A stretch of 64,000 bases of DNA from a virus: positions 1 to 64,000 of IMG/VR virus record IMGVR_UViG_3300037247_001314. One strand, written 5' to 3'. The notes under the pieces are model-generated. The model was not told the DNA's origin. It made no database searches and worked only from the letters and a program-made list of their open reading frames with translations. Shown here in pieces: positions 21,109 through 40,501 of the stretch. Made by a program: the position numbers and the translations under genes. Each line of letters opens with the position of its first letter. Positions within the stretch are counted from its first letter, which is position 1.

Positions 21109-21455
21109 TACAAAAACTCCTTGAACCGTTCCTCGAGCCTCGTTTGAGCCTCAGCCTCATTTGCCGCTGTTGGCCAATCCTCATCGGGGAACTGCGTGCC
21201 GAGTTCGGCGTAACGCTGCACCGTCGGCCAGAGCAGAAGGATAATGCCCTCAGCTGTTGGCACACGCAGGATACCGTCCTCGGGGTCATCAAGGAAGTCA
21301 GGGTGCTCGTCCAGAAAGGGGAGCCACAACTTCCCATTGCCCGGAGTGTTTGATAGCTGGAGTCGACCCGCAGACATGCTCACCTTCACGGCAGCTGTGA
21401 GCGGTTGGCGGGGGGAAACGCGCAAGTCGCGCACGATGTAAATGCCGGCTTTCAT
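21108..21455 (-). CDS. Hypothetical protein
   Basis: ATGA-coupled to the 2465-aa gene (MKAGIYIV). Confidence 0.55.
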   Translation of the reverse strand: MKAGIYIVRDLRVSPRQPLTAAVKVSMSAGRLQLSNTPGNGKLWLPFLDEHPDFLDDPEDGILRVPTAEGIILLLWPTVQRYAELGTQFPDEDWPTAANEAEAQTRLEERFKEFL

Positions 21456-24400: not shown

Positions 24401-27400
24401 TTTTACTGTTGCGCCGTGGTCCCCGAGCAGGCACCACGCGTTTAGGGCTCCTATGTGGGCCTGTGCCGGCTTGAGCGGAGCGAGGTTGTGGTCGTCGATA
24501 AACGTTTGAAGTACACCAGCGGCTGAGAGGCTTGCTCCCGCATTTGGATAGAAACGGAGAACATGTTCGCCACCGTGTGGGCTCACGGTGAACTTGCCGC
24601 CGTACTTCTGCTGCACCGACTCTTGCTGGATGTAGTCGCCGAGCACCATCTTCGTGACGACGGCTTTCGTCTTTTGCTCGGGGGGAATGTCTTGTGGATG
24701 GGCGCCGATGGCGGAGTCAGCCGTTATTAGCGCAGCATGGGTCGCGAAAGTGTCGTCTTGAGCGAACGCAGCAGTGTCGAGGTGGAATGCTTCTTCCATC
24801 GCTTCGTAACTGCCAGTTTTGCCGAGCGCGCTCCCGAGCGCGTAGAGCGCCGTCTGATTAGCGTCCCCGTGCGTGACGGCGCCATCCTCATTAACCGCTA
24901 CAAACTTTACTTGCCAAGGCGCACTACCATCGGTGTTGTACCCACTTGCTGTCGTCGTAATCCAAGTTTTTTTGCCCTTCCATTCGCCTTGTAGCCAAAC
25001 GCCCGTAGGCGGAACCCATGGATCCCAATGCGGACTTTTCATGCCGTAGGTTTTGTCAGGCTTACCTGGAACCGGAGCACCGGCGAGCTTCTGCGCGTTT
25101 GTCCAGACGGCTTCCTTCTCAGCAAAATCGGGTAGCGATTCCTTCGTCGTCACGACTACCGGCCCTGGGTCGCCAGAGATAGACGGGGTGGCCGGGGACC
25201 AACCAGAGAGTAATAGCTCAAGCGGAGTAAGCTCTTTTGGTTCAGGCTGCACAGTGCTTACAGGGTCGTGGGGCATCTGGACGAGCCATTCGAACGACTC
25301 GGGCTGAAAGTCCTTTGGGCTGAATGCGAACTCATCGCCAAGTTTTTTGCTGTACCACTTGCTGTCGTTGTGCTTGGTGTAGGTGTCCTTATCGTGCGTC
25401 ACCGACGAGCCCGGAGCCATCGCGGTAAGTTCGGCTACCGTCAACGGCTTGGCCCCGGAGCCACCAGCTGCGCCTGGCTGATGGATGATTTTGAGGTCGC
25501 TAGCTGCCATCTCCGTTGCAGAGAAGTTTGACCCGATGGTGTTGACGTAGCCGTCAGCAACTTTTTTATACGTGTAGCCCGCTGAGTCCTTGAGCACAGA
25601 GTTGAGAGGAAGTTTTGAAAGCTCGACAAGAGACGGAAGTTTCGCGCCTTTCCAAAGAAGTTTGCTCTCAACGTCTGGAACTGGCCCCGGGAGCACCTTC
25701 CATGTTGTGGAACTCAACGGGAGAAAGTCCGGGTGCGTAACGATGTTGGTGCCAACTGCGACCCATTGCTCGTCAGACTCTTTGATGAACGCCTTCTCAC
25801 CGTTGTTGATCATTGAGCCGAGCGGCATGGCCGCGAGCTCGGCCAACGTGAGTTCTTTTGCGCCAAATAGCGCGGGCAGCACGCCTAGGGGCAGCGGCGA
25901 CTGCGCTGCAGGGGCGTCGGGGGCGAGGACCTTCATGCCGCCATACCCAGACGATGCGTCTCCGGCGATATCGGAACTCAGCTGCTCGTCGGATAACGCA
26001 GGAATATCGGTGATGCCTAATGGCTTCCATCCAGACGCAGTCTTAACCCAACCATCCTCGCCAGGAAGGGTCTCTGGGCCCGGCTTGGATCCCGGCTCGC
26101 CATAGACGAGCATGGTGCCTTCAGGAAGTGCAGCGAGTTCGTCGCCACTCGGAAGTTTCCAATCGTCCCAGCCCGGCTCTCCGGGCGCGCTCGGGGTGAG
26201 CGGCGTAGCGAACGTCATGAGTTCGCCGCTCTTTGGTTTCACGCCAAAAAACTCCCAACCACCTCCAGACGCAACCTTCGTCTTGCCGGTTTGCTTCTTA
26301 TAATCCGCTTTGTCCTCGTAACCCTTCTGGCGGAGCCAGACCCAATCACTTGCTGCCGACAGGCTTTTGAAGGTTTGCTCTGCATCCGCTGCAGCACCGG
26401 GGACACCAGCGATAGAAACCTTGAAGCCTTCTTCCAACACTTCAAGGTCGACCGCTACCTCGTACTCTTTTGTTCCAACGCCAGTGGGCGTCGGTAACAC
26501 AAATGGCTTGAGCATCGTGTGCTTGTGCCCAACAGGAAGCGGACCGCCCTTCTTTGGGTAGACGGGGTTCGCGAGGATGGTGTCCTGGACAACAAAGTCA
26601 GAAATCACCTCAGCCTTAGGCGCGAGCCCGACGACGGGCTTGGGGGGAGGGGGCGGCTTGGGCTTTTTGAGCTGCTGGGTCGCCTTCGCTGCTGCGGAAA
26701 CAGACGGGAGCAATAGCACGGGTTTGAGCCCCGGGCTGGAGGCAGAGAACGCGCCGTACTCTGTCGCTGCACCATTCGACGCTACAGAATAGTATTTGAA
26801 AAGAGGGGCGCCGTCTGGAGATTGGTGAGCGACATAAATGTCAAACGATCCACCTCCGTCGAGAGCTTTGATGACGCTGCCGGGGAGCGGAAGGTTGGCG
26901 GGCCAATCATGTGGCACCGTCGCCTTCGCGTGCTTGGCTGCAAACAACTTCGCAGCATTTGGGATGAGTGCGGAGTCAGCGATGATGCCGTCCTCGACGG
27001 TGGCCAGCATCTCGTGCAGCGTGAGCGCCTTCTGCTCAGGCGTGACCTTCTTTTCAGCGACGAGTTCTTCGTACGTCTTGCTCGCAATGGTAGCTGCGCC
27101 TTGCAGCCCCGCAGCCTTGAGGTCCTCTGCAAACTGTTCCAACTCAAAGAGCTTCGTCGCGCTGAGCGCGATGCCGTTCTTCTTCTTATCCGACGAGTTC
27201 ATGTCTAGCGGAAGATTCTTGTTGAACAGCTGAGTGCCGTCAGCTGCTGCCGCTGGCGACGGGTAGAGTATGAACTTGCCGTCTGGAAACTGCGCCTGCA
27301 CCTCCATCTTGCCCGAAAACGGATTCAGCTCAAAGGCAAACGCAAACGTGTTGCCCGCGACCTTCACAGACGCGTAGTAGCCCGGGCCCGGATAGTTGCT

Positions 27401-28849
27401 TGGCCATCCAGAGGGGTGCGGACCACCTGGATGCATAACGGTCACCTTGCCCTTTGTCATGGGCCAGCCAGGCACTTGGGCGACGTCGACGGGCTTGGCT
27501 GCTTTATCCTCGACAGGAGCCGCCGCGGGCGGACCTTCGTCTGCGCCGGGAATCGTGACGCTCTCACCCGTCATCTCCGATAGAAACGTTTCCCAGTTAC
27601 TGCGCAAGTCTTTGAACCGCTGCTCGATGAGTGCCCATTTTTTCTTAGGCGTGAACCCGTCAAGACCAGCGCCAGCTTCTTCGAGATAGGGCGCGACGAT
27701 GCTGTGGTACTGCTCCAGCGACAGGTTCTTCTCGATGCTGTTGAGCACCTCAGCTGCAGCCTTCACCGGATCGCCTTTGATGTCGCCCTGCTGAAAGAGC
27801 TTCCACATCGCGTTGTAGGCCGGCGAGCTCGGGTTGAGCTTGTAGCTGTCGCTAAGCTTGTCAGCGCCGATGGCCTTGAACGCTTGTCCCTTGTCGAGAG
27901 CAGCGATGTCGCCGTCCATCGTGTGGACGAAGTTGGCGCCGTGGCTGTCGTGGTTGCTCATCATCCAGTCGAGCACTTGGTGCTGAACAAGACGTTCAAA
28001 GTGCTTCTGAAGGACAGACGTCTGGACGCCGTGGTCGCCGCTCACCTCATTGCCGATGTTACCCTTGCTATCGATCCACGACAGGAGCACGCCTTTGTCG
28101 CCCTCGTGCGTGACCATCTCTGCGTCTGGATAGAGCTCGGGCTCGGGGAAGACGAGCTTGGCCACGCGGTTGAACACTTCTTCAGCGCGGGACACCCAAG
28201 TCTGGCCGTTGTTAGTTTTCCAAGCGTATTGATTCCCTTTGTCGTCAACGACAATCTTGCCACCGTGGGTTCCGCCTAGCGCGCCTTTGAGCTTAAGTGT
28301 CGCGAGCATCGTGTCGGAGAACGGAGGGTCCTCGTCAGCGCCGGAAGCGCCCTTCGCTGCCCACGCGACCAACTCGTCTGCATGCGGAATGAGAGGCTCG
28401 CCGACGTGGTCCCACAGCGACGAGGTCTTCACTTTCACCATGCCGCCAGTAGGCACGGTCTTAAGGTCGGGGAAAGAATCCGTGAGTTTCTTAGCGTCGG
28501 CAGCAGACACCACGAACACGCCCGCGTAGCCGTGCCCTTTTGCTGTGACGCCTAGCTCGTCGAGCCAGGCTTCTATTTGCTTGGCGTGGTCGCTATCTGC
28601 GGGGTGCTGCGCCGGGGGCGCCTTTAGAGTCTTTGCCGCGGTCTTCTGCGCTTTGAGTTTCTTCGCAGCCGCTGACCCGCCGTAGACAGGCTTGCCGTTC
28701 TTCCAGCCAACAATCTTTCCACCTTTGGGGCCGATGGCGATTACGGCCATGCCATCCGCGTAGCCAAGCTTCGGCTTCGGGGCCTTGCTTAAGCCGCCAT
28801 GGGCCTTGGCAAAGACAGTGGGCTCAATCGCTAGTGCTGTCTGGAACAT
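21452..28849 (-). CDS. Giant multidomain (polyvalent-type) protein: PI3K/HipA-like kinase, RAMA-like domain, 7 short repeats, C-terminal ART-like domain
   Basis: LGGTHGG..YAWK..AEEV..DWMMSNHDSHGANF..LDKGQAF; FKSLSAAS..GGGWEFF; ELxxLPxG repeats; FAH..SILLSETGIPS..HEVMFENGV..DI. Confidence 0.7.
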   Translation of the reverse strand: MFQTALAIEPTVFAKAHGGLSKAPKPKLGYADGMAVIAIGPKGGKIVGWKNGKPVYGGSAAAKKLKAQKTAAKTLKAPPAQHPADSDHAKQIEAWLDELGVTAKGHGYAGVFVVSAADAKKLTDSFPDLKTVPTGGMVKVKTSSLWDHVGEPLIPHADELVAWAAKGASGADEDPPFSDTMLATLKLKGALGGTHGGKIVVDDKGNQYAWKTNNGQTWVSRAEEVFNRVAKLVFPEPELYPDAEMVTHEGDKGVLLSWIDSKGNIGNEVSGDHGVQTSVLQKHFERLVQHQVLDWMMSNHDSHGANFVHTMDGDIAALDKGQAFKAIGADKLSDSYKLNPSSPAYNAMWKLFQQGDIKGDPVKAAAEVLNSIEKNLSLEQYHSIVAPYLEEAGAGLDGFTPKKKWALIEQRFKDLRSNWETFLSEMTGESVTIPGADEGPPAAAPVEDKAAKPVDVAQVPGWPMTKGKVTVMHPGGPHPSGWPSNYPGPGYYASVKVAGNTFAFAFELNPFSGKMEVQAQFPDGKFILYPSPAAAADGTQLFNKNLPLDMNSSDKKKNGIALSATKLFELEQFAEDLKAAGLQGAATIASKTYEELVAEKKVTPEQKALTLHEMLATVEDGIIADSALIPNAAKLFAAKHAKATVPHDWPANLPLPGSVIKALDGGGSFDIYVAHQSPDGAPLFKYYSVASNGAATEYGAFSASSPGLKPVLLLPSVSAAAKATQQLKKPKPPPPPKPVVGLAPKAEVISDFVVQDTILANPVYPKKGGPLPVGHKHTMLKPFVLPTPTGVGTKEYEVAVDLEVLEEGFKVSIAGVPGAAADAEQTFKSLSAASDWVWLRQKGYEDKADYKKQTGKTKVASGGGWEFFGVKPKSGELMTFATPLTPSAPGEPGWDDWKLPSGDELAALPEGTMLVYGEPGSKPGPETLPGEDGWVKTASGWKPLGITDIPALSDEQLSSDIAGDASSGYGGMKVLAPDAPAAQSPLPLGVLPALFGAKELTLAELAAMPLGSMINNGEKAFIKESDEQWVAVGTNIVTHPDFLPLSSTTWKVLPGPVPDVESKLLWKGAKLPSLVELSKLPLNSVLKDSAGYTYKKVADGYVNTIGSNFSATEMAASDLKIIHQPGAAGGSGAKPLTVAELTAMAPGSSVTHDKDTYTKHNDSKWYSKKLGDEFAFSPKDFQPESFEWLVQMPHDPVSTVQPEPKELTPLELLLSGWSPATPSISGDPGPVVVTTKESLPDFAEKEAVWTNAQKLAGAPVPGKPDKTYGMKSPHWDPWVPPTGVWLQGEWKGKKTWITTTASGYNTDGSAPWQVKFVAVNEDGAVTHGDANQTALYALGSALGKTGSYEAMEEAFHLDTAAFAQDDTFATHAALITADSAIGAHPQDIPPEQKTKAVVTKMVLGDYIQQESVQQKYGGKFTVSPHGGEHVLRFYPNAGASLSAAGVLQTFIDDHNLAPLKPAQAHIGALNAWCLLGDHGATVKEFAVETTAIEAASTPPTITPAPNYDWPGTSPVNSVDTLEAAPVGASVHVKSGDKLVKLANGNWAGIGDDGEPMSEGIPSSLVADFTLESDSGYAGFDPALGNFSSMTPAELKALPVGTVLHSDHKFGIQLVKENVTYWKGNDGNLYGNTSVATHSVVVDPLTVKTPSHPSGVKKVKALGGHLKSTTINDKIKELPANVKLHTKWGDIFTADGGKPYSKFTGVDKMGEGIGVYASHQIASLVKDAGGASVQWPGDKVKKKKTPVTLQVVKPKVPVNSEQIKKAQAWTAWAKDNLKPTDAEDLLVLAHFQKQLADGGYTAGLHVHEDGKGNYLLAGKDANAFHTSVENWEGMPPSTDSDSPLGTMLVVKKSALAKRFPDAKYLKAAHDGLTYPKGTTFEVNEIVTKTVRDVVLADLTAIEPGKPKKIKAHDSEPDKLVIKFNGVSAKVKEDAAAYLAAKGITAHGEPQVSVSTVFTVSKADLDAAFETSKEVTPILPELPPAFVQAPVPFALGPQKQGGLAVNNEGDLAALDSFKMGHWGHSIRHGAAGLWQNHQVSVRRVDNPDGEDYYELTGDLLHFEPDASKLSKGVVKYYHPVDKKGAPSFDIYDEDTGLHKKGNTPIEGGWGGYDGKTDGGSYVGVCHQNGTMYQAGKYVQTDDPKQAAGVAMRGRLVARIPVSKDVQTELQHVLQMAGVSPELAASTHDADAERLFIKSQIVKCGLGTRGHWLYDIDGNDLDRRKYADEAWLDGQLKKMDYAKYVDTAEIRVGAGGAHTVWFDRFSKEELKDVYFAHTGGASPGAAASILLSETGIPSRKQGYTNGTAPKSSQASDDINTGGAAGTMVRVARKGGPGASSVHGYDDSDTQVRYIYHPRVLKRADYWAHHHDRYGSQIQSDTKNTGKPEEEVLKLTSSNHEVMFENGVAHEDIAGVWCRSLSIRSELINTMKTAGKTKINGVPVDDFFFTGTQTDTALKDACKGLKVGA

Positions 28850-28881
28850 GGCACCACCCTACTCGGGATGCGGAGAGGGGG

Positions 28882-29193
28882 CTACTGAGGAACGACGAAG
28901 GTGACTGCCTTCTTCTTTTTCTTTTTGGGAAAGCTTTTGCTGAGTGCAACCTCCAAGTCGACGTCGTCTGGCAGCGCGTGCTGTTGTGCGAGTTCGCCAT
29001 CAATGCGGATGTCGTAAAAGGTGCCGGCGAGTTCAGGATTCGCCCCTTCAATGAGCAAATCGCGCTTGCCCGCTACCCACGCACGCGCGTAGTCGCCAAG
29101 CACCTTCATGCCCTGCGGCGTGAAAGAGCCGTCGTCGTTCTCCGTCGCTAGCGCTTTCGAAAGCTCGACCGTTATCTGGATGTGCTCAACCAT
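28882..29193 (-). CDS. Hypothetical protein (LSKA/LSKS sites)
   Basis: Coupled to the MuF gene; poly-Lys then AVTFVV tail. Confidence 0.55.
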   Translation of the reverse strand: MVEHIQITVELSKALATENDDGSFTPQGMKVLGDYARAWVAGKRDLLIEGANPELAGTFYDIRIDGELAQQHALPDDVDLEVALSKSFPKKKKKKAVTFVVPQ

Positions 29194-31687
29194 TGCTCGC
29201 CTTCTTTCTAGCGCGGGCTCGTTGCTGGATGAGTTCGTACGCTTTCTCCTGCGTCTTCTGCGCGTTCTTGGTGCGTGTTTCAGCGACGGGGATGTGTGGA
29301 TTGTCCTCGCGGAAGTTCGCTACCAACGTCGTGCCGATGTCTTGGCGCCGATGTTTCTTTGCGACAACGAGGTTGGTACCGTCGTACTTCGCGATGGGCT
29401 TGCCCTCATGTGTCACCACGTAGTTGGCGCGGGTCGCATCGTCGTTGTGCCCACGATGCACTTCGAACTTGCTGCTGTGCCCTTCAACCTTAAACTCCTC
29501 GGGCTTCACGTGCTCAGTAAGCTTGCTGTGCTTGGGCACGAGGTCGCTCGCGTGGCCGGCTTTAGTCCGTTTGGGTTTACCGAGAAACTCTTCGCGGGAC
29601 ATCTCGTGCGCGTGTTTGTCGGCGTAGATGGGCTTTCCAGCCGCAGTGTGCCCCACCACCTTGCCCCCGCGCGAACCTTCTCCAGCCTTGTTCACGAGGT
29701 CAATAGGTTTGCGCTCCCCGTCGCCCTCGATGATGCGCGCGTCGTCGGTCTGCTCGGGGTAGCGCGGTCGGCCTTCCAGTTGCACAGGATGCCACTGACC
29801 CTCTGGCTGCCGTGTTGCTCCGCGGTTGGTCGGCACATCGCGCATCTGGAAGCTCAGGCGCTCCACCTCGCGTTTGTGCTCTTCGGCGCGGTTCTCCGTC
29901 TCATCCGGCGTGATGATGTTCTTCGTGTTCCCGTGTGCGTCGGCGATCGGGTAGATCTGATTGTCGACTCCGCCCCCGAACACATAAATCTCGGGGTCTC
30001 GACGCACGATGACGTCAGCGCGGTGCTGTGCGTCTTGAAGGTACGCAACTACGCCAGCTACGTCGTGTGGGTTGTGGGGTTTGTCTGGAAGGTCGGCTTG
30101 GATGTTCACCCCGCCGCCGCTGCCCTCCTTGAGGATGAACTGTCCGCCGCCAACAGCAAACGCAGCACCGCTCACCCCCTCGACGTGGGGCAACGCTTTG
30201 AAGAGGGTAACTGCTCTCCGGCGAAGTTTTCGGCGCACCGTGAACCGCGCTTCAGGCTCCAGCGGCGCAGGCGGTGGTGCTACAGGCGCAACGTAGTTTG
30301 GGTTGGGGATAATAAACTCAGGTTCCGCTTTCACAAGCTTGCGCGGTTTGTCGCGCGTGGTCGCGAGTTCCGTTTTGAGCTTGTTCATCGACATCGTCGT
30401 CATGCTGCCGAAGAACCCTTTGTCATCGTAGTTGCCAATGTACGCAGCCTTTGCTTCTGCCGCCGACGAGAAGCCCAGCATAATCTTGTCCTCGTCGTAG
30501 CCCTCAAACTTGCCCTCCAACGTCCGCTTGCGCTGATGCACAATGTACGCGCTTGGCGCGAGCGGGTTTGGGCCGACGAAGCAGTCGACGTGGTCTCCGT
30601 CGACGCCAAGCGTGCGCCGGATGTAGCCGTACGGCCAAAGCATGACGGTTGCGCCATCGGTCTTGTTCTTGTGGTCTTTCCAAAACCGGAGGCCTCCCGC
30701 CCCATTCTCAATAGCCACATCAAGCCCCTGGAACTGCAGCTCTCCGTCCAGACGGTACGCCTTCACCAACGCATCCATATGGAGCGCTTCCAGACGCATA
30801 GCCTTCTCAACGTCCTCAGAGTCCCCTTCGTACTCAACGCCAAACTCGCCGGCAGGAATCATCGTGCCGTCCTCGTCGTAACCCCAGCCCGCAGGAACGC
30901 GCACGATTTGGCATTGGCAGTTTGGGTGAATGGCGCCGATGCAGGCCACCCAGTCAGCAGCTTTCTTGCCTACGTTCGCGCCCGGTGGGGCCAACTGCGA
31001 GAGCTTGAAAATGATGGGAGCGCCATCTGGACCGAGGTGGAGGCGCTTGCAATGTTTGCACGCATCCGGCATCGGAATGAGCGAGACGCGCGCTTCGGGG
31101 CCGTACTGTTTACGGAAGCCATCGCCGACACCCTCCTGCATGACGTTGTGGTTTTCGGTGATGGCAATGCGGTCGAGATCCCGCGTCCAATCCTGCATCG
31201 AATGCCCGAGCCTACTTTTGAGAGTCCCTACTGTTTTCCGGGAGGCAATCTTCTCAGCCGTCTCTGTCCGGATTTTACCCTGCAGCTCTCTGCGCTGTGC
31301 GCGGTCTGCCTCGACAAGGACCTGCCCTGTCTGGAGATCGATGGTATTGCCAAGTCCCACGACGTACTGCGCAGCATTTAGCTTTGCTGTCTGGACAGCC
31401 TGCACTTCCACCGCCGACAGTGGGATGGGGTTCTTTGTGAGTTCAGCTTTCACCTTGGCAAGGTCCCACGTCGGCATGTTGGGGTCCTGGAGCTTGGCCA
31501 CCAGCTGGCCGTAGTTGTACGCCGTCTCGAACAGGTCCTCGTGGCCTTCCAAAAGGCCAGCGTCCTGCAGCTCTTTCACCATCTCCGGTGGTATAGCGGC
31601 AGGGCCGAACACGTCGACGACAAAAGCCGCGTTGTGCTTCTGGATGATGTCCTTCACCACGCGCAGGAGCTCGGGAGTGAGTTTCAC
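29186..31687 (-). CDS. MuF (SPP1 gp7-like) head morphogenesis protein fused to inorganic pyrophosphatase-like and GNAT-like domains
   Basis: RIAITE..DACKHC..IHPNCQC (MuF); IENG..YGYIRRTLGVDGDHVDCFVG..DEDKIMLGF (InPase); VVAKKHRRQDIGTTLV (GNAT motif A-like). Confidence 0.85.
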   Translation of the reverse strand: MKLTPELLRVVKDIIQKHNAAFVVDVFGPAAIPPEMVKELQDAGLLEGHEDLFETAYNYGQLVAKLQDPNMPTWDLAKVKAELTKNPIPLSAVEVQAVQTAKLNAAQYVVGLGNTIDLQTGQVLVEADRAQRRELQGKIRTETAEKIASRKTVGTLKSRLGHSMQDWTRDLDRIAITENHNVMQEGVGDGFRKQYGPEARVSLIPMPDACKHCKRLHLGPDGAPIIFKLSQLAPPGANVGKKAADWVACIGAIHPNCQCQIVRVPAGWGYDEDGTMIPAGEFGVEYEGDSEDVEKAMRLEALHMDALVKAYRLDGELQFQGLDVAIENGAGGLRFWKDHKNKTDGATVMLWPYGYIRRTLGVDGDHVDCFVGPNPLAPSAYIVHQRKRTLEGKFEGYDEDKIMLGFSSAAEAKAAYIGNYDDKGFFGSMTTMSMNKLKTELATTRDKPRKLVKAEPEFIIPNPNYVAPVAPPPAPLEPEARFTVRRKLRRRAVTLFKALPHVEGVSGAAFAVGGGQFILKEGSGGGVNIQADLPDKPHNPHDVAGVVAYLQDAQHRADVIVRRDPEIYVFGGGVDNQIYPIADAHGNTKNIITPDETENRAEEHKREVERLSFQMRDVPTNRGATRQPEGQWHPVQLEGRPRYPEQTDDARIIEGDGERKPIDLVNKAGEGSRGGKVVGHTAAGKPIYADKHAHEMSREEFLGKPKRTKAGHASDLVPKHSKLTEHVKPEEFKVEGHSSKFEVHRGHNDDATRANYVVTHEGKPIAKYDGTNLVVAKKHRRQDIGTTLVANFREDNPHIPVAETRTKNAQKTQEKAYELIQQRARARKKASNG

Positions 31688-32070
31688 CCGAGACGCTCGT
31701 AGCGCGGGTTACCGGGGCCCCATCCCGGTACGACACGAACGGCACGCGCCCTACGCGCCTTTGGCTTGAAAATACGGCGCCACCACGGCACGCGACCAAC
31801 GCGCACGATCTTGTCTACGACGTTGTACGCGGCTGTCTTCGGGATGTCCTTCCAGTACGCAATGTGTTCCACACTAAAAGTGACGTTCTTCGGTGCCGAA
31901 AATCTCAGGCGGGGATCGGGTGTAAAAAACGCGATGGTGCGGCCGTCGTTTACGAACGGCTCAGGAAGCTTAGGCGCGGGCTTCTGTCCAAGCTCAAGGT
32001 TCGCTGTGAGCATTGCTGCGGCGAGGCCAACACCGAGCTTTGCCAAAAATCCTCGTCGTGTGTCGCTCAT
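31684..32070 (-). CDS. Tat-signal protein containing a major-capsid-like peptide
   Basis: MSDTRRGFLAKLGVGLAAAML; KNVTFSVEHIAYWKDIPKTAAYNVV. Confidence 0.6.
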   Translation of the reverse strand: MSDTRRGFLAKLGVGLAAAMLTANLELGQKPAPKLPEPFVNDGRTIAFFTPDPRLRFSAPKNVTFSVEHIAYWKDIPKTAAYNVVDKIVRVGRVPWWRRIFKPKARRARAVRVVPGWGPGNPRYERLG

Positions 32071-32522
32071 GTTGCGTTCCCATCTTTCACGAGCGCAGAT
32101 TTCAACAAGCCGCAAAGCTCGTTGACGCTCATACCGTAAAGCGGGCCGTCTTCCTCGAAGTCTTCGTCGGTGTGCCCTTGCGCAATGAGCGCCGCCTTCA
32201 TCTTAGCAAATGCAGCTTCCTCAATGGCCACTACTTTTGCGGTGTAGTCGGGGCTCTCGCTTTTGATGGTGTGGTCGTCGACCGCTTGGAGAATCTCCGC
32301 CACCATGCGGTCGTACCCTCTGGTCGCGCGTGAGCGCATGCTCCCGTGAAGTTCACGGAGCGCTTGGTGCTTGAGCACGGGTTCGTGCGCGTGCAGGGAA
32401 GCCTTCTGGAGCGCGTTGGCGAGCTCGGGCGCATCGACTGCAAGCGCCTTCGCGAGTTCGTCGAGAAGGTCAGAGCCGCGCTCTGCGAGTTCCCCTTTGG
32501 TGGCGTCCAGACGTAGCCTCAT
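32067..32522 (-). CDS. Hypothetical head-module protein
   Basis: Coupled ORF (MRLRLDATKGE) with LAKA, LQKA and LLKS sites. Confidence 0.55.
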   Translation of the reverse strand: MRLRLDATKGELAERGSDLLDELAKALAVDAPELANALQKASLHAHEPVLKHQALRELHGSMRSRATRGYDRMVAEILQAVDDHTIKSESPDYTAKVVAIEEAAFAKMKAALIAQGHTDEDFEEDGPLYGMSVNELCGLLKSALVKDGNAT

Positions 32523-32926
32523 GGCGTTATGGGATCTCCCCACACCGCCCAAAGGAGTCGCAGGTCTGCAAGCGGAGTGACCTTCAGCGACGTGACGATA
32601 GCCTCCATGAACACTTTCGCGTCTGGAGCTTTAGGCGCGGTGGCTACGTCGGTCTGTCCTCGACGCACCTGGATGACTTGCCCGCTGTTGTTGATTTCTA
32701 GGTCGAAGTCGTTATCGGCTCGCAAGAAAAAACCGTAGATGGTGGTGGGGCCACCGAGGGGGACATCAAACTCGCCGGCAGCAAGAGTGATGTCCCTGGT
32801 GTCGTTGCCCTGGCTAGCGAAGCCGTCGAGGATGGTCTCCGCTAGGACGTCGCTCAGTCCGAGCAAGATGGAGGTGCCATCTTTGTCCTCAGTGAAACGT
32901 GGGTTGACGGTGTGTCGAATGCGCAT
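32519..32926 (-). CDS. Hypothetical virion protein
   Basis: GGAGG RBS; beta-rich; directly after the portal. Confidence 0.55.
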   Translation of the reverse strand: MRIRHTVNPRFTEDKDGTSILLGLSDVLAETILDGFASQGNDTRDITLAAGEFDVPLGGPTTIYGFFLRADNDFDLEINNSGQVIQVRRGQTDVATAPKAPDAKVFMEAIVTSLKVTPLADLRLLWAVWGDPITP

Positions 32927-32935
32927 AGCGCCTCC

Positions 32936-34852
32936 CTACAGGTCGAGGTCAATGTGCAAAACTGCGGCTCGGCGCTCGGCCTTCTTCAGTTTCGTAGCAA
33001 GGTGTGCGCGCTGGCCATCATACTGATCGGCGAGGGCGGACTCTCGCGCTGCGTGCGCCTTGTACTGCACAGCTAGGGCGCGAGCTTGGTCCCGCTCCAC
33101 TTTCAAATCGTGAATGGGCTGCCCCTTGCGTAGCGCCGCATCCGCGCGCATGGCCTCGGTAGGTGAGTGCGTCCAGAGACCGTCGGCGCTCTGAAGCCAA
33201 CCATCCATCCATCCCATCGACTTCGCAGCCGCATCAGGCTTAGCAGGCTTGCCGGGAGGACCACCCTCAACGTTGTTGCTTGCGCCTTCGTCGTCAGCCG
33301 CGTTCTCATTCTGGATGCCATCGAGTTCGCCGCCGAAGCCGTCGTCTTCCTCGCCAGGCTCGGGGGGAGGGGCGAAGTCGCCGACCTCCATGTCCTGCTG
33401 AGCGGCCATCGTCTTGTTCTGCATCCAGACAGGGTTGAGGATGACCTCGCCTTCGCCGTCTGGAAGCGGTGGCAAGTCTTCTTCGGCACGCACTTCGTCC
33501 ACGGTCTTGTACGACGACACGAGCTTGGTGTTGAGGTCTGCGAGCTCCTCGGGCGACGCAGCGTCGAGCCCCACGAAAGCAAACTCGAAGTCCTCGTCGA
33601 TGCGGTGGACGAGGTACGACGACAACCGGTGCGCGATGAACCGAAGCAGCGGTTGCAGCCCTTTGTCTTTCGAGTTCGCGAGCTTCTGTTTGTTGTTGCT
33701 CTCAAACATCGACGATGCGCCGCCGCTGTCGCCGTACTTGAAGTTGATTTCAAGCGGGTCCATCCCATAAATGGCGCACGCAACCTTGATGAGGAAATCG
33801 AACCACGCGCTAAACTCCATGTCTTTGTTGGACTCTTGGAGCTTGATGTATTCCAGACCTTCGGCGTTGGTGATGGGAGTTTTGAACGCGTTCTCGATGC
33901 CGGCGACCATCGAGTACCAGTGTCGACGGAAAGCGCGCAGCTGGCGCTCAGGCACCGCACCCTTGAAGTTGATGATGCCCTTGGAGCTTGTGCCTTGACT
34001 GAAAAACTTTTGGTTGTAGTCCCATGACCAAAGCAGCGACGTCACCGTCGTGATGAGCATCTCCGTCTCAGCAACGCCGTAGCCTTGGTTGCGAATGTCG
34101 GTGACGGGGTTGCGGATGCCGAAGCACAGTTGGTCCGCGCCATACTCCGCGGTGACGAGGCCATCATAAATCTGGACGTAGCGCGTCTCGTCTGGGTTCC
34201 CTTGGTAGTGGAGCTTGGTGGTGTCTGCGATGCGCAACGTAGCGCCGTCGACGGCGTAGAAGTCGAAGGGTTTGTGCCCGCGGTCTTCGCGCACCTCAAA
34301 ACCCATCTGGTCGTAGGTGAGCGCGTCGCGAGTGATTTTGCGAAGGAACGTCTCAAAGTTGTCACGGGCGTTCGGGGTAGCCTCGTCAGCCACCTTGCCC
34401 GTCGTCATCATCCAGTTGGTGATTTCTTTGCTCATCTTCTCGCTGGCACGAGAGGGGGCTGCCTTGCGGTCGCGCAGCTGAATGCGGAAACCTGTCTGGA
34501 ACTTATCCTCTTGCGGCATCGAGAACGACGCCAGCTGGTCGGTGCGAGTTTTGATTATCGCCTGGAGGATGGGCATGCGAAAGACCATCGCCTGCAGCGT
34601 CGAATAGCTGATGGAGCTCGGGCGCTCTTTATACCCGAGCGCGTCGATGACGCTGAACGGGTCCCAAAAAAGTGCCTTAGGCTCCGCCGTGGGGTCGCCA
34701 ATCTCCGACGGGTGCATTGCAGCGGTCGCAGGTGTGTTCTCCGACGGCTGTGCACCATCGTCGTCCTCGTCACCCTGAGCTTTGGCGAGGACGTCGAGGG
34801 CAGCTACCGAAGCAGCGCCCGCGGCGTCTCGCATGGTATCGAACAACCCCAA
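32936..34852 (-). CDS. Portal protein
   Basis: IIKTRTDQ, RDALTYDQ, FYAVDGATLR, YNQKFFSQG, NKDMEFSAW, SKDKGLQPLL, TVDEVRAEEDLPPL. Confidence 0.92.
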   Translation of the reverse strand: MGLFDTMRDAAGAASVAALDVLAKAQGDEDDDGAQPSENTPATAAMHPSEIGDPTAEPKALFWDPFSVIDALGYKERPSSISYSTLQAMVFRMPILQAIIKTRTDQLASFSMPQEDKFQTGFRIQLRDRKAAPSRASEKMSKEITNWMMTTGKVADEATPNARDNFETFLRKITRDALTYDQMGFEVREDRGHKPFDFYAVDGATLRIADTTKLHYQGNPDETRYVQIYDGLVTAEYGADQLCFGIRNPVTDIRNQGYGVAETEMLITTVTSLLWSWDYNQKFFSQGTSSKGIINFKGAVPERQLRAFRRHWYSMVAGIENAFKTPITNAEGLEYIKLQESNKDMEFSAWFDFLIKVACAIYGMDPLEINFKYGDSGGASSMFESNNKQKLANSKDKGLQPLLRFIAHRLSSYLVHRIDEDFEFAFVGLDAASPEELADLNTKLVSSYKTVDEVRAEEDLPPLPDGEGEVILNPVWMQNKTMAAQQDMEVGDFAPPPEPGEEDDGFGGELDGIQNENAADDEGASNNVEGGPPGKPAKPDAAAKSMGWMDGWLQSADGLWTHSPTEAMRADAALRKGQPIHDLKVERDQARALAVQYKAHAARESALADQYDGQRAHLATKLKKAERRAAVLHIDLDL

Positions 34853-34860
34853 GGGAACCT

Positions 34861-37371
34861 CTAGTCGTCGAAGGAAAGCCCATCTGGAGCGTAGACGTCA
34901 CGGCCGGGAACCGGCCGGCGAAGGCCAGGACCCTTGCTGTGGGTCTGCGGCACTCCAGACGCGGGTGCTGGCGACATGCTCTTTTGCATCGTTCCAGACA
35001 GTCGGTCAACCCCACACTCGGGGCACTTGGTCAGCGCCTTCATCACCTGCGTGTTGCAAGCGGGGCACGCTTGGCTCTTGGTAAGGTCGTTGCCCAAGTC
35101 AAAGCCGGGCTGCCGACCGTGGTAGCCGAACGAATCTTTGTCGCTGTTGAGCAGCTCCATACAATCTTGGTCGCTGATATCCGTCATGATGATGCCGCCC
35201 TTCATCATGACCTTTATCTGACGACCATTTTGCAGCGGGGCCTCTTGGCTGGGGCCCACCCCGAGACCCAACTGAACGTCGGCTTCGCCCTTGCGCATCG
35301 CTTGGACAGCAGCGGCACGACGCTGTTGCTCGGCGATGACCTCAACGTCGGCGTGCAGAGGCATGCCGGTCTGCGCGTCGAGGCCGCTCTTGGAGAAAAG
35401 CTTTGAGGAGCTTTCGTTCTGGTGCAGGCCTGGCGAGCCAACTTGGGGGTTGCTTCCAGACGGAGCGCCGGGGCTCATTCCAGACGCACCGCCATGGACG
35501 TCGTGCGTCTTAGCTCGCAACGAGCTTTGGTTGCCGGTATGATTCGGGCCGTAAGCGGGCCCCCCTTGGCTGCGCTTTTCCCCAAGACCAGCGGCGCCGG
35601 TCTGTGGGCTCGACGCTGAGGCTGCGGCCGAGCTTGGGTGGCCTGGCATCGGAGCAGTCGCATCACCGTAGGCGTTGCCTCCCTGGCTGGCTGCTGAGCG
35701 CTGCGCGCCCTGTGCGCCGTACGCGCTCGCGGGAGCTCCAGGGATGATAATCATCCCGTGCTCGTCCTTCATCTTGTCGGTGTCGTTGGGGTCGTCGGGT
35801 GTGAACTGATCGGTCGTTCCCGTCTTTCCAGACACAAGGCTGTTTTGTGGCACGTCAGGCCCTCCTTGATTAGCGCCGTAAGCGTCGCCGGCAGCGCTGT
35901 TCACTTCATTGATTCCAGACGCGCCAGTGCGAACTGCCGGTCCTCCGCCGATGCCCCCATGAGCTCCGACGCCATCGAGCCTACCACCTTCCTCGGTGCG
36001 GCTCACTTCGACGTTACCGGCGTAGCCATTGCGCTCGTCGAGGCCTTGCCGCACACCCTTTGGTAGGGGCTTACCGGTCTTGCCCATTCCGTAGTCCCCG
36101 GTGCCCGGCCCGAGATTACCTTTTCGAAGCCAATCGACAAGGCCGCCGTTGTCGCTCGCAAAACTCTTCTTGGTGTCGTCGGGCACAAGAATGCCCCCCA
36201 CTTTCTTCATCCCATACTTAGCAGCGGAGAGGCCTTGTCGCACAACTGCGCCATCCCCTGAGACGGCATCCTTGCCCGTGTGCTTCTTATGCAAATGATG
36301 GTCGTGGTCACCAGCTTTGGCTTCGTCGTGAAAATCGTCCGCCATGCGCTTAGCTGCGGCAGCACGGGTAGCGGGGTCAAACGCATGGGAGCCACCACCT
36401 CCTGCGCCGCCCATGTCCTTCTTGTATTTCTGTGAAGCGCTCGCAAGTAGGTGCCCGTAGAGCTTCGTTGCTTGAGCGTGATCGTATTTTCCAGACGCCA
36501 TTTTATTGACGAGGTTTTTTCGAATCGGCTCGTGCTGTTGGCGGTGCAGATCGCCGTCGTTCTCCGTGAACATCTGGAGTTCGCGGCTTCCTTCCGCGTC
36601 GTGGTGCTTTGCTGTTGGCGCTGACTTGCCCGAGTGTTTCTTGTCACTCCAAGGGATCTTGTGTGCGGGGTCCGCCCACTTGCCGCCGCGGGCTCCTATG
36701 TACGGGCCCGCTTTGCTGAGGCTATCGCCCTCCTCGACGAGGCCAGCGTAGCTCTTGGAGAACGTGTCTTCAGCAGCGACATCAAGCGCATCGGCTTCAC
36801 CGGCATCGCTGAGCCAAGCGTTGAGCCCCTTATTCATCTCAGAGTAGTCGCCGCCCTTGGCCGCCATTGGTGGGGGGCCTTCGTTGCTCTCGGCGCCTTC
36901 TTCTTTCGCAGCTTCGGCTTCCGCTTCGTCTGGAGCGTTCGCATCCACACCGTCGTCGTCACCATCGGCTTCCGTGCCACCTTCAACGTTTTTCTGCTCA
37001 GCCGGTTTGTCGCTACCGGTCCCACCTTTGAGAAGGTAGTCGAAGCCACTGGAGTCCATTGCGCGTGCTGCGGGCGCGGGAGCGACTGGGGCGGGTGCTC
37101 GAGCGGGCGCTGCAGTTTCCCCACCCTTTTCCAGACGCTCGCTTTTGGCAATGTGCCACTCGTAGCGCTGTTGATGGGCGGTGGTTTGCTCATCGTCGAC
37201 AAGACCGAGCACGACTTCGTCAGGTGCGTCTTGGCTCTTATGCAGGGCACGGGAGGCGTCGCGTGCGAGCGCATGCGCATCGGCGGCACTCTTATGGAGA
37301 GCAAGCGTGTCGTGCTGGACCGCTTGAGCGGTGGCTTCTTGGGCCTTATCGGCGAGGTCGGCGTATTTCAT
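34861..37371 (-). CDS. Low-complexity polyprotein with many hxK[AGS] sites (probable internal head protein)
   Basis: More than 15 such sites; KAGPYIGARGGKW tag; ELQMFTENDGDL..KNLVNK..GKYD module; C-terminal CPAC..CPECG. Confidence 0.65.
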   Translation of the reverse strand: MKYADLADKAQEATAQAVQHDTLALHKSAADAHALARDASRALHKSQDAPDEVVLGLVDDEQTTAHQQRYEWHIAKSERLEKGGETAAPARAPAPVAPAPAARAMDSSGFDYLLKGGTGSDKPAEQKNVEGGTEADGDDDGVDANAPDEAEAEAAKEEGAESNEGPPPMAAKGGDYSEMNKGLNAWLSDAGEADALDVAAEDTFSKSYAGLVEEGDSLSKAGPYIGARGGKWADPAHKIPWSDKKHSGKSAPTAKHHDAEGSRELQMFTENDGDLHRQQHEPIRKNLVNKMASGKYDHAQATKLYGHLLASASQKYKKDMGGAGGGGSHAFDPATRAAAAKRMADDFHDEAKAGDHDHHLHKKHTGKDAVSGDGAVVRQGLSAAKYGMKKVGGILVPDDTKKSFASDNGGLVDWLRKGNLGPGTGDYGMGKTGKPLPKGVRQGLDERNGYAGNVEVSRTEEGGRLDGVGAHGGIGGGPAVRTGASGINEVNSAAGDAYGANQGGPDVPQNSLVSGKTGTTDQFTPDDPNDTDKMKDEHGMIIIPGAPASAYGAQGAQRSAASQGGNAYGDATAPMPGHPSSAAASASSPQTGAAGLGEKRSQGGPAYGPNHTGNQSSLRAKTHDVHGGASGMSPGAPSGSNPQVGSPGLHQNESSSKLFSKSGLDAQTGMPLHADVEVIAEQQRRAAAVQAMRKGEADVQLGLGVGPSQEAPLQNGRQIKVMMKGGIIMTDISDQDCMELLNSDKDSFGYHGRQPGFDLGNDLTKSQACPACNTQVMKALTKCPECGVDRLSGTMQKSMSPAPASGVPQTHSKGPGLRRPVPGRDVYAPDGLSFDD

Positions 37372-37406
37372 GTCAGAACCTTAGCTGAAAGAGACGTTGA
37401 GGTCTT

Positions 37407-38513
37407 TTACCCCTTGGAGCCCGCTGCGCCCAGCTTCTTCACGGCAGCAGGTTTGAGATTTCCGCCCGCGTGCGAAAGTTCGCCAGCGCGGACAGAATCC
37501 CGGATAGCATCTTTGATGAGCTCGTCGTCGTAACCGCCGTAGCCCTTGAGGTCGTCAAGGGAGCAGCCCTTGCCTATGCGCTTGACAAGACCAGCCCGGC
37601 ATTTCTTCTTGAGCACGTCGCGTCCAGACACATGTGCGCCGTCTTGTTTCGCGTAGTCGTCCTCGTTGTAGAAGTAACGGTGCTTGCCCGTTTCCTTATT
37701 CGTCACACGACGGTGGTAGCTACCCCCTCGGGGGTCAGCCTTCCGCATCGACTCATCAAAGTCAGGATGCGAATCGTCGCCGGTGTCGTCATAAATCTGC
37801 TTTGCGAGTTCACGACCAGCTGCGTCCATCGCGAGGCAGTAGCGTTCGCCCGCGCTGAGTTCGCTTTTTCGCAAACCTTGCAACCGCCGCTGTAGACGCT
37901 GCGTCTCGTTGTGGTTGTCGCCATGGTCTCGGTAGTAGCGCGAAGCCCTGACAGTGACAGCTTTGCGCTGCACGGGATCTAGCTGCATGTACTGCAGCTG
38001 GTGGTTGAGCGACGTGCGAAAGTTGACCTCGGGATGTCCTATGTTGTCCCGCACCTGCGTCTGGATTTGCTGCTCTTGCGCAAGAGAGAGCGCAAGCCCG
38101 CGCGTTACGCCGGCTGGGCTGTGCACGGGCTCGTTGAAGCTCAAGAGCTTTGCAGCCGTCCGACCCCCACGAGGCATCGCCGTCAACGCGCTCGGGATGG
38201 TCATGCGAGGGATTTGTCCAGACACGATGCCTGTTGCCTTACTCAGCCCGCCGTTTGCTTCAGTCATCGTGTCGAGGTCGTACTGAACGCCAGTGCCGTA
38301 GAGCCCACTATCATCGACGCTACCAAGCATCGGCTGGTTGTCGGTGACGAGGACATGGAAGCATTCGCCGCTCTTCTCCGTCTTGCTTGTGAACGTGCCG
38401 CCCATCGCTTGATAAACGCCTGAGACGTAGGCGTAGTTTTCGCCTTGGCCTTGCTCTGCTGCCTTTTTTTCCGCGCGCTTCCACTTGTCGTGGTCGGTGA
38501 CATTTGCCGGCAT
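37407..38513 (-). CDS. Probable internal head protein with a ChaB-like N-terminus
   Basis: DKWKRAEKKAAEQGQGENYAYVSGVYQAMGG; MRKADPRGGSY..GKHRYFY. Confidence 0.55.
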   Translation of the reverse strand: MPANVTDHDKWKRAEKKAAEQGQGENYAYVSGVYQAMGGTFTSKTEKSGECFHVLVTDNQPMLGSVDDSGLYGTGVQYDLDTMTEANGGLSKATGIVSGQIPRMTIPSALTAMPRGGRTAAKLLSFNEPVHSPAGVTRGLALSLAQEQQIQTQVRDNIGHPEVNFRTSLNHQLQYMQLDPVQRKAVTVRASRYYRDHGDNHNETQRLQRRLQGLRKSELSAGERYCLAMDAAGRELAKQIYDDTGDDSHPDFDESMRKADPRGGSYHRRVTNKETGKHRYFYNEDDYAKQDGAHVSGRDVLKKKCRAGLVKRIGKGCSLDDLKGYGGYDDELIKDAIRDSVRAGELSHAGGNLKPAAVKKLGAAGSKG

Positions 38514-38566: not shown

Positions 38567-40501
38567 CTACCATTCAAAATCCTTATTGCCGAGTCCTGGC
38601 AAATGGCGCCAGGCGAGTTCATCTGGATGCAGCTGGTCGTCTGGCACGAGGGAGGCCTCCTGCGCTGACCGTGTTGCTCGCGGGCCCACAAGATTCTCGA
38701 CGGTGAGGTGCTGAGCGATAAAGTCTTTGATGGCGTCCTTAGGCGCGTCCTCGATTTCGACGTCGCCGCCCCACTCCTGCAGCAAGTCGCCCACAGGGTC
38801 GTCCCCCCACTGTGCTGCGTCCGGCTCGACCATCTGTTGGTCCAGGAGTTGGTCAAGGCTGAGGTCGTCGTCGCCCTCCTCACCAAAGGAGAAGCCAAAG
38901 GCCCCTGCCCTGACCGCGCAGTTAGCGATCCAGAAAGCCATCACCGTGTCGTCGTGAGAGCCGACGCCTTGGAGCTTGCCCTCCAGCCACGTGAAGTGCC
39001 GCATTTCCTTTATCCAGATGTCGCTCTTCTCGACGCTCTCTTGGTCGCCGCGGGGAATGCGCACCTTCGCGTTTTCCAGCAACACGCGCAGCTGGGGCAC
39101 GCCGCCTTCGAGGGTGTTTTTGTTCATCGTGTGCGTGTTGCCTGAAGGTTGCGCCGAGTTTGACTTCTTGGTTCCAGACGTCACGAACTTGTAGATGGGC
39201 AGGTCAGTCTCGCGGATGAGGTCATCAGCAAAGATGCGTTGCATTTGATTCGATTCCAGATAGATGAGGTCAGCGTCGTACTTTCGCCCGAGTGCGTTGA
39301 TGAGTCCCAGTTGTTGTTTGTATTCCAGACCGTGGTGGCGTTGGATGTCGATGATCCATCTGTTGCGTGCTTGGTCCAGACCGAGGACGAAGCCGACGGT
39401 GTAGTCCGCCCCCGTCGACGTCGAGATGGCGAAGTCGAAACCAATGTAGAAGCTCGTGATGCCGAGCTCCTCGTAGTACGCACGCGTCTGCCCCATCTTC
39501 ACGCCCAGCTGCTCGGTAGGCGACCCTCGGAAGAGTCGGCCGGGGAACAAGCTCATCTCGTCGCTGATGGGCTCGCACATGAACTCGCGCGTGAAGCGCA
39601 CGCTCTTGATTTCGAGTTCGCGCTCTTCGAGAGACTCGACGACAATGCCTTGTTCCAAGTAGCGAAGCCGTTCGGCCTTCGTCGCGCAGAATCGCTCGGG
39701 CCACAGCGCCTCACCTGCCAGATTGCGTGCTGCGTATTTGCGGTAGCAGTAGCGTTTGTTCTCAGCGAGGTCAGCGTAGAGGTCGGCCGCGTGGAACGGT
39801 GTGCCCACGACGATGACCTGGCCGCCAGGGTTCACCATGTTTGTGATGGCCGTGTAGAAGTAGTCTATGTGCTTGTTGCGAACGAGTTCGCTATACGCGT
39901 CCTCGTCGTTGAGCCCGTCGTCGACGACGATCCAGTCAGGGTGGGCTCCGCGGATCTTGGTGCCGAAACCGCGCGCGTAGATTTTATGGCCGTTGGCCAA
40001 AGTGATCTGAGTCTTGCTCCAGTTGCGCGCTTTGTTCTTCGGGTTGAGGAACGCAAGCTTGGGGTTGCTCTCAATCTCCTCTTTGATGTCTTCGAGGATT
40101 CGAACAGCCTGCTCTTGCGTCGCCGAGAAGATGTAACCTCGACCACCAGGCATGAACGCCGCTTTCCAAATAGGAAAAGCGAAGTCGAAGAAAAATGTTT
40201 TTCCGTGATTTCTCGGGGCCAACACGCAGATGCGGTCTTCTTTGGCGACGAGTTCGTCCCACTCCATGTGGTGTTCGGCGACGATGAAATGGCTGTTGTA
40301 GGGAGCCTGCACTGGCCCAGACAGACACTCGCTCGCGAAGAAAGCGCATGACTCCCGCATCATCTCGATGGTGAGCGCGTCCCAGTCGTCGTCGCCACCT
40401 TCGACCGCAGCGTGGGCACGACGTTCTACAGCGTCGTCGTCCCACTCGGGAACGCCGCTACTAAAGAGCTCACCAAATCCGTTAGCCGGCATTGCCATCA
40501 T
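38567..40501 (-). CDS. terL: Terminase large subunit
   Basis: Walker A APRNHGKT, Walker B WIVVDD, VGTPF, FTREFMC, nuclease IGFDFA..DYT and HDDTVMA. Confidence 0.95.
   Translation of the reverse strand: MMAMPANGFGELFSSGVPEWDDDAVERRAHAAVEGGDDDWDALTIEMMRESCAFFASECLSGPVQAPYNSHFIVAEHHMEWDELVAKEDRICVLAPRNHGKTFFFDFAFPIWKAAFMPGGRGYIFSATQEQAVRILEDIKEEIESNPKLAFLNPKNKARNWSKTQITLANGHKIYARGFGTKIRGAHPDWIVVDDGLNDEDAYSELVRNKHIDYFYTAITNMVNPGGQVIVVGTPFHAADLYADLAENKRYCYRKYAARNLAGEALWPERFCATKAERLRYLEQGIVVESLEERELEIKSVRFTREFMCEPISDEMSLFPGRLFRGSPTEQLGVKMGQTRAYYEELGITSFYIGFDFAISTSTGADYTVGFVLGLDQARNRWIIDIQRHHGLEYKQQLGLINALGRKYDADLIYLESNQMQRIFADDLIRETDLPIYKFVTSGTKKSNSAQPSGNTHTMNKNTLEGGVPQLRVLLENAKVRIPRGDQESVEKSDIWIKEMRHFTWLEGKLQGVGSHDDTVMAFWIANCAVRAGAFGFSFGEEGDDDLSLDQLLDQQMVEPDAAQWGDDPVGDLLQEWGGDVEIEDAPKDAIKDFIAQHLTVENLVGPRATRSAQEASLVPDDQLHPDELAWRHLPGLGNKDFEW

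Follow-up and report, generated by a model that had tools for sequence, protein, structure and literature searches.

The choice of proteins for loading into a phage capsid, and their injection, are known experimentally for only a few model phages (T4, P1). The cut motif used in head maturation is L/I-x-E in T4 and ends likewise in Glu (A/S/G-x-E) in phiKZ-like phages and SPN3US. In encapsulins, short conserved cargo-loading peptides on a flexible linker address diverse enzymes into an HK97-fold shell, these peptides being usually C-terminal and not coupled to proteolysis. The capsid targeting sequence (CTS) of the T4 proteins IPI-III and Alt is a short peptide common to unrelated anti-defence cargo, which adjoins the prohead-protease site and permits the cargo to diversify, and which lies N-terminal to the cut and is removed (PMC3012670). 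For P1 DarB, the N-terminal 30 residues suffice to load a reporter into capsids, while the Dar proteins have no common consensus (PMC9024508). According to the accessible parts of two reports, many head-internal proteins that phiKZ-like phages and SPN3US eject into the cell are substrates of the prohead protease, which cuts them at a short motif that the capsid protein has as well (PMC10052503, PMC7411985). The polyvalent proteins are proposed to travel inside the head and to enter the host together with the DNA (Iyer, Burroughs, Anand, de Souza and Aravind 2017; PMC5512222); the accessible parts of that text attribute their processing to built-in zincin peptidases and mention neither a conserved inter-module peptide nor prohead-protease sites, and polyvalent proteins have so far been explained by domain content alone. 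Here we analyse a set of peptide tags encoded in IMG/VR virus record IMGVR_UViG_3300037247_001314, using the first 64 kb of this 106.8-kb record (completeness judged 99%); this whole stretch of 64,000 nucleotides is called the window, and its phage G000. Four proteins encoded in the head module of G000 carry a tag with an [RK]GG[KS] core behind a predicted cleavage site.

Each of the systems above offers a point of comparison. Like the polyvalent proteins, the tagged proteins are large, multi-domain and encoded beside MuF and portal genes, and the two groups have InPase, ART-PolyVal, ddrB-ParB, LPD1, DarA_C, SNF2, RelA/SpoT and GNAT cargo in common. With several predicted effector domains per polypeptide and a place in the head module, the tagged proteins would themselves count as polyvalent, but unlike in the published description their modules are punctuated by a site of capsid-protease type and a conserved tag. 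Like the T4 CTS, the tags are common to otherwise unrelated cargo, and the original prediction had compared the two. This analogy breaks down over the side of the cut, as the T4 signal stands before the cut and is removed, whereas the tags here stand C-terminal to a predicted cut after Lys and would stay on the cargo; they also recur up to seven times per polyprotein and form several families. The leader before the cut was considered as a T4-like targeting sequence and rejected, since some leaders consist of no more than MNK↓ or MKK↓ (the arrow marks the predicted cut). P1 DarB is a giant polyvalent antirestriction protein for which coupling to a protease site is not described, whereas the tags here are near-invariant and present in hundreds of proteins. 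In contrast to phiKZ-like phages and SPN3US, as portrayed in the accessible parts of their reports, a conserved peptide is found here on the retained side of the predicted cut. Encapsulin peptides are unrelated in sequence to these tags, for which binding to the capsid wall is one candidate mechanism.

Four head-module proteins carry a tag behind a predicted cleavage site

The head-module genes of G000 all lie on the minus strand, in the transcription order large terminase subunit (TerL), p368, p836, portal, three small open reading frames (ORFs), MuF, p2465, protease, scaffold-like ORF and major capsid protein (MCP) (Table 1). The [RK]GG[KS] motif occurs in p368, p836, MuF and the 2465-aa protein (p2465), in all four cases where the original prediction had located it, with peptide strings and spans that were correct to within two residues. 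Also as predicted, three of the tags begin directly after h-x-K↓A, namely after LVNK↓A in MuF (K667), LSK↓A in p836 (K220) and MRK↓A in p368 (K258); the tag of the 2465-aa protein follows its nearest site, LSK↓A (K22), at a distance of 20 aa. When the four proteins were shuffled, they contained a mean of 0.76 motifs, with 0.07 behind a site, against the observed 4 and 4, and none of 5000 shuffles reached 4.

A profile made without the window sequences, which still contained the orthologous tags of a close relative, recovered the four tags from a six-frame translation of the whole 107-kb genome at E 1e-13 to 9e-6, while the next best match had an E-value of 2.3. That relative (G001) is a complete 110-kb genome with a portal 83% identical to that of G000; an 11-kb fragment (G002) has a portal that is 62% identical. 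In six-frame profile scans of all three, tags were confined to homologues of these head-module proteins plus one further G002 protein, with extra copies in p836 of G001, in the p836-like protein of G002 and in the further G002 protein.

Predicted cleavage sites match the capsid maturation site

The MCP of G000 has a presumed maturation site, LNK↓A, at K32. An alignment with the capsid proteins of SPO1, Listeria P200 and Kayvirus shows this lysine to be invariant, and most capsid proteins from tag-bearing loci retain it, one having Glu there instead. The Kayvirus capsid chain in PDB entries 9row, 9rox and 9roz has 439 residues and begins with Ser25, directly after VVK24, and PDB 5lii holds the 463-residue Kayvirus capsid precursor. 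Because the 9row chain begins after the aligned Lys24, a studied relative has its maturation cut at the corresponding bond. The deposited Kayvirus chains thus give a Lys↓Ser maturation cut for Herelleviridae-type heads; for the capsid proteins of A511 and SPO1, no paper was found that states where the N-terminus is processed. The predicted cleavage sites in front of the tags match the capsid maturation site of this head family, with Lys at P1, a small residue at P1' and a hydrophobic residue at P3, and head-module proteins contain the corresponding h-x-K-[AGS] motif at 3.4 times the density seen in the remaining proteome. We infer from this likeness that the sites would be cut in G000.

The tags fall into three or four families

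Judged by their sequence profiles, the tags are three or four families and not one. A single homologous family was rejected, as the type A profile detects neither type B nor type C, and the one shared tag of the original prediction has to be divided accordingly: a [PS][RK]GG[KSN] core, a terminal aromatic residue and the position behind a site are common to all families, and nothing more. Type A, present in p836, has the consensus h-x-K↓[AGS]-G-P-[FY]-I-G-P-[RK]-G-G-K-W-A-D-[PA]-x-H-T-I-P-W, and a type A profile built exclusively from 99 unrelated IMG/VR copies has the p836 tag as its sole match in the genome, at E 8e-17. Type B, present in MuF, reads K↓[AGS]-G-x-G-S-R-G-G-x-[IV]-[IV]-G-H-T-x-S-G-K-P-I-Y; an independent profile finds the MuF tag at E 7e-17 and the tag of the 2465-aa protein weakly (domain E 0.0075). 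Type C, present in p368, reads K↓A-x-P-R-G-G-x-Y-H-R-R-V…G-K-H-R-Y-F-Y and is found by an independent profile at E 7e-23. The variant in the 2465-aa protein, [VI]-I-A-x-G-P-[RK]-G-G-K-I-[VI]-G-[WY]…P-[IV]-Y, is also present in G001 and at loci L080, L096 and L112, where it likewise stands behind h-x-K↓[SG]. The families are linked by context, because 23 of 205 database proteins mix types and because types A and B are swapped at the same orthologous MuF site.

The tags matched no Pfam or PHROG family, many multi-tag proteins lack any Pfam entry, and a PDB sequence search with the tag profile gave an unrelated best match at E 0.031. They qualify neither as RGG boxes nor as AT-hooks, there being one RGG per tag, no GRP core and no Pfam family.

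The structural models differ between families. AlphaFold2 runs on 105 aligned type A cassettes gave a predicted local distance difference test score (pLDDT) of 64 and no strands. The 30 residues after a type A tag are poor in hydrophobic residues (fraction 0.18 versus 0.26), enriched in Lys, His, Pro and Glu, and mildly basic (net charge +1.0 versus a background of +0.5). Since it has no confident fold and is followed by a hydrophobic-poor linker, type A resembles a linear docking motif attached by a flexible leash. Type C always precedes the same domain of ~85 aa, often at the C-terminal end of a polyprotein, so that the whole module spans ~110 aa; AlphaFold2 models it as a hairpin (RRVT/HRYF, pLDDT about 60–65), three helices and a wing, and the Foldseek neighbours of this model are all winged-helix domains, with weak E-values. 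To judge from its constant sequence context, type C is the start of a fixed module and not a free tag. The beta-hairpin that had been proposed for the tags is therefore predicted for type C only, at modest confidence, and finds no support for type A.

Two further observations concern individual tag types. The further G002 protein (L003:4163-7030, plus strand), encoded between the portal and MuF genes, carries two type A tags, with a zincin-like HELAH (HExxH) motif ~100 aa after the first. Type B usually has a helical, His-rich segment, F-[ST]-x-x-D-H-x-D-A-A-x-x-H, within 10–20 aa downstream, in tandem arrays of up to seven units in p836-like proteins (His-rich arrays in P0030, P0073, P0097, P0100, P0107, P0111, P0133 and P0147, and at L004:7947-8280). 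Such a His-rich tandem protein may bind metal or have a structural role inside the head.

Tags mark swappable cassettes and are kept by selection on the protein

The MuF proteins of G000 and G001 are 79% identical over residues 1–668, and their alignment stops at the cut site. Beyond it, a type B tag and a GNAT-like domain follow in G000, and a type A tag and unrelated sequence in G001. Relative to its G000 counterpart, p836 of G001 has one inserted cassette consisting of a site, a type B tag and a His-rich segment. The end of MuF homology at the cut site and the extra cassette in p836 bear out the idea that portable tags mark swappable cargo.

At identical tag residues, third-codon identity amounts to 0.47 for tags of the same locus and 0.37 for tags of different loci. 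This low identity indicates that tags are kept by selection at the protein level, not by gene conversion. A gene-conversion or recombination hotspot behind the conservation was accordingly rejected, as synonymous sites are randomised.

Tags are widespread in metagenomes and accompany diverse cargo

In a search of 1.84 billion representative proteins, a mixed profile matched 979 protein clusters at E<=0.001, 238 of them at E<=1e-10, with up to seven tags per protein and proteins of up to 3135 aa. Among the 508 tags held by 205 retrieved sequences, 472 have an h-x-K-[AGS] motif within 16 aa upstream (93%, versus 11% of random windows). The P1 residue of the tag sites is Lys in 96%, P1' is Ala, Gly or Ser, and P3 is Leu in ~62% and Leu, Phe, Ile, Met or Val in about 91–93%. 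The distance from Lys to Arg is mostly 7–9 aa, and the median spacing from tag to tag is 252 aa. In 54 cases the tag stands behind an N-terminal leader of 3–10 aa, the shortest being MNK↓ or MKK↓. Core tag positions are 80–100% conserved, and portal identity to the window has a median of 49%.

Domains between tags include InPase, ART-PolyVal, ddrB-ParB, LPD1, DarA_C, SAM lyase, zeta-toxin kinase, GGDEF, RelA/SpoT, type IB topoisomerase, SNF2 helicase, PAPS reductase, GNAT and NUDIX. At the DNA level, the pattern encoding GPRGGKWAD occurs in at least 100 IMG/VR stretches, and in 70 of 80 examined tag-bearing IMG/VR loci a homologue of the window head genes lies within ~14 kb. The type A DNA pattern was found in 6 of 185,579 prokaryote genomes, all of them metagenome-assembled genomes (MAGs), which are assigned to Myxococcales, Lentisphaeria, Sedimentisphaerales and Bacillota by weak bin assignments. 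The tags are thus not common in non-virion proteins, being confined to head-module proteins in the two whole-genome scans, and they are conserved in homologues, as the 979 clusters testify; on both counts the original prediction stands.

A full-text literature search returned no paper with a specific tag string, the generic string GPRGG leading to unrelated papers, and papers on polyvalent proteins and MuF toxins do not mention a tag of this kind. The feature is real, widespread and apparently undescribed, and it is probably a form of capsid-cargo addressing and processing.

Other features of the head module

The portal and capsid proteins of G000 are ~40% identical to their counterparts in SPO1-like Herelleviridae, the figure for the portal alone being about 42%. 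Past the region homologous to SPO1-like portals, the portal protein continues for a further ~150 aa at the C-terminus; this extension contains a strongly acidic stretch and an LRK↓G site and is a candidate docking surface for basic tags. The C-terminal 165 aa of MuF give sub-threshold GNAT matches (E 0.002–0.2) around an RRQDIGTTL motif. A weak HipA_C-like match (E 0.18) in the 2465-aa protein covers a catalytic-loop string of D-x-H-x-x-N type, and the first domain behind the tag of this protein may, to judge from that match, be a HipA/PI3K-like kinase. Near the C-terminus of p836 lies a CPAC…CPEC zinc-ribbon-like element with weak Pfam zinc-ribbon matches, which is the sole part conserved with the p836-like protein of G002. 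A small ORF after the portal gene contains a stretch resembling residues ~66–95 of the capsid protein, and loci L038, L040, L051, L055, L067, L083 and L086 have a second ORF with a cut site and a look-alike of the capsid N-arm (…LAK↓SLSAGS…GFPLRTESLE). These capsid-like small ORFs may encode N-arm mimics that ride into the capsid.

Table 1 Head-module features of G000 and their positions in the window
Feature	Position	Strand	Family matches	Details
TerL	38567..40501	-	PF03237, PF17289, phrog_38	Large terminase subunit; first gene of the head module
p368	37407..38513	-	No Pfam or PHROG family matched	ORF for a 368-aa protein, between the terminase and p836 genes
p368 type C module	37410..37748	-		Cut site MRK↓A (K258) and PRGGSYHRRVTNKETGKHRYFY, then winged-helix-like domain to the C-terminus; [RK]GG[KS] at 37719-37730 (aa 262)
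p836	34861..37371	-		836-aa head-module protein; 16 h-x-K-[AGS] motifs, one type A tag
p836 type A tag	36649..36720	-		Cut site LSK↓A (K220) and AGPYIGARGGKWADPAHKIPW; [RK]GG[KS] at 36679-36690 (aa 228)
p836 zinc-ribbon-like element	35011-35076	-	Weak zinc-ribbon (Pfam)	aa 766-787
Portal	32936..34852	-	PF04860, phrog_12	
Portal C-terminal extension	32939-33388	-		aa 489-638
Small ORF after the portal gene	31684-32115	-		Capsid-like stretch
MuF-like minor head protein	29186..31687	-	PF18823 InPase (E 2.5e-29); phrog_115 and phrog_4660 (minor head protein)	833 aa; InPase domain, tagged C-terminal cargo
MuF type B tag	29624..29698	-		Cut site LVNK↓A (K667) and AGEGSRGGKVVGHTAAGKPIY; [RK]GG[KS] at 29660-29671 (aa 673)
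MuF C-terminal 165 aa	29189-29683	-	GNAT, sub-threshold	
Giant head-module protein (cargo)	21452..28849	-	No significant Pfam family	2465 aa
Tag of the 2465-aa protein	28682..28786	-		LSK↓A (K22), 15-aa spacer and B-like tag IAIGPKGGKIVGWKNGKPVY; [RK]GG[KS] at 28715-28726 (aa 42)
HipA_C-like segment of the 2465-aa protein	27917-28009	-	HipA_C, weak	aa 281-311
Prohead (head maturation) protease	19902..20744	-	phrog_1028 (E 2.8e-30)	Presumed cutter
MCP	17683..19122	-	phrog_752	
MCP presumed maturation site	19027-19029	-		LNK↓A (K32)

Possible roles of the tag

The four peptides are, in our reading, the heads of cargo cassettes, with the tag most likely acting as a loading or retention handle, and we give this reading a probability of roughly one half. 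The putative cassette would consist of an h-x-Lys↓Ala/Gly/Ser site, a tag of ~20 aa, a polar linker and an enzyme or binding domain, and the clade meant is that of uncultured phages with SPO1-like heads, in which such proteins would be destined for the capsid interior. Head-module products would enter the procapsid, MuF probably via the portal and the others via their tags. The prohead protease would then cut each cassette free after Lys and leave the tag at the new N-terminus. There the tag would serve, as a short linear motif, as an address or handle read by a conserved head component, for which the protease, the scaffold, the portal and the inner capsid wall are candidates, and the enzymes would finally be delivered with the DNA, as proposed for the polyvalent proteins. 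Given leaders as short as MNK↓A, the tag appears to matter even where there is nothing upstream to be separated from. A receptor in the head is favoured over DNA or a host structure because the tags occur in one head lineage, although their cargo domains are widely shared, are coupled to its site and stand at N-termini behind uninformative leaders.

Several points weigh against this reading. Cleavage, loading, the receptor and injection are all deduced from sequence. Types A, B and C are not demonstrably homologous, so that a function in common may not be assured, and the predicted winged-helix module of type C could bind DNA. About 7–10% of tags stand without an upstream Lys, some having Arg or His instead, and the coupling of 93% comes with a slight bias toward tags with a site, as the database search profile held K[AG] columns. 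Every module has its own tag, though one per polyprotein would suffice for loading; the way in which cassettes evolve could account for this, yet a tag on every module would also suit a function that follows cleavage, either in exit or in the host. In favour of the reading, tblastn searches with type A, B and C tag queries against 50,697 cultured phage genomes gave nothing, or noise at E 7–10. InPase homologues are present in 479 of these genomes, and since tags were not found in cultured phages that have InPase, the tag follows the head system and not the cargo.

A loading or retention handle has to be set against functions that the same peptide might serve at other stages. The tag could be a recognition element of the protease, either an exosite or on the P' side, that aids cutting between modules and has no later role. 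Such an element would account for the fixed spacing of 7–9 aa from Lys to the RGG core, for the near-obligatory coupling of tag and site (93%) and for the restriction of tags to phages of this head family, yet no tag accompanies the sites of the capsid protein and the scaffold or many further h-x-K-[AGS] sites, and three or four tag families would need to fit one protease. Moreover, in the 54 proteins that begin with a leader of 3–10 aa and a tag no separation is needed, and because these leaders are too short to carry other information, we consider a pure enhancer of cleavage unlikely. Alternatively, as the original prediction had it, cleavage could expose a DNA-binding handle that tethers the modules to the packaged genome, with which they would exit. 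This would agree with the retention of its own tag by each predicted cleavage product, with the Arg, Lys, Trp, Tyr and His residues of the tags, with the predicted basic hairpin and winged-helix domain into which type C leads, and with the slightly basic linker after type A. However, DNA is universal, whereas the tags belong to one head lineage and the searches of cultured phages with the same cargo domains did not find them; the linker charge is just +1.0 versus a background of +0.5, no hairpin is predicted for type A, and there is no match to known nucleic-acid-binding families, all of which make a DNA tether improbable.

The tag would also stay on the mature cargo, and its role could thus come once the cargo has been injected into the cell, where it might, for example, direct effectors to a conserved host structure or stabilise them there. 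That its core is far more conserved (80–100%) than any head protein (portal median 49%) would be understandable if the host read it, but a host reader sits poorly with tags that occur in one head lineage and are tightly coupled to its cut site, and the tag-carrying MAGs, weakly binned as they are, come from widely separated phyla and so speak against a single host target; we think such a role quite improbable. Chance, low-complexity composition or a DNA-level recombination scar could be invoked on the ground that the bare four-residue motif occurs elsewhere in six-frame translations. The shuffles (0 of 5000), the independent profiles (E 1e-16 to 1e-22) and the largely randomised synonymous sites refute this explanation, to which we assign almost no weight.

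Implications for cargo selection

With a peptide this sharply defined at the head of hundreds of unrelated enzyme modules, cargo selection becomes testable in a large uncultured clade, including the questions of what the receptor is, whether the tag is sufficient and whether it acts in loading or in exit. The tag is also a simple marker for injected anti-defence effectors in metagenomes and, if it is sufficient for loading, would serve as a small label to direct proteins of choice into phage capsids in laboratory systems. Somewhat more tentatively than for the handle itself, and at less than even odds, we propose that these peptides may represent a general plug-and-play addressing code inside tailed-phage capsids, in which a dedicated procapsid receptor would read a peptide of ~20 residues. 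If so, any domain placed behind h-x-K↓A and a tag would be loaded, cut free and injected, and the tag would be the tailed-phage counterpart of the encapsulin cargo-loading peptides, one that would let this clade shuffle its anti-defence enzymes as cassettes.

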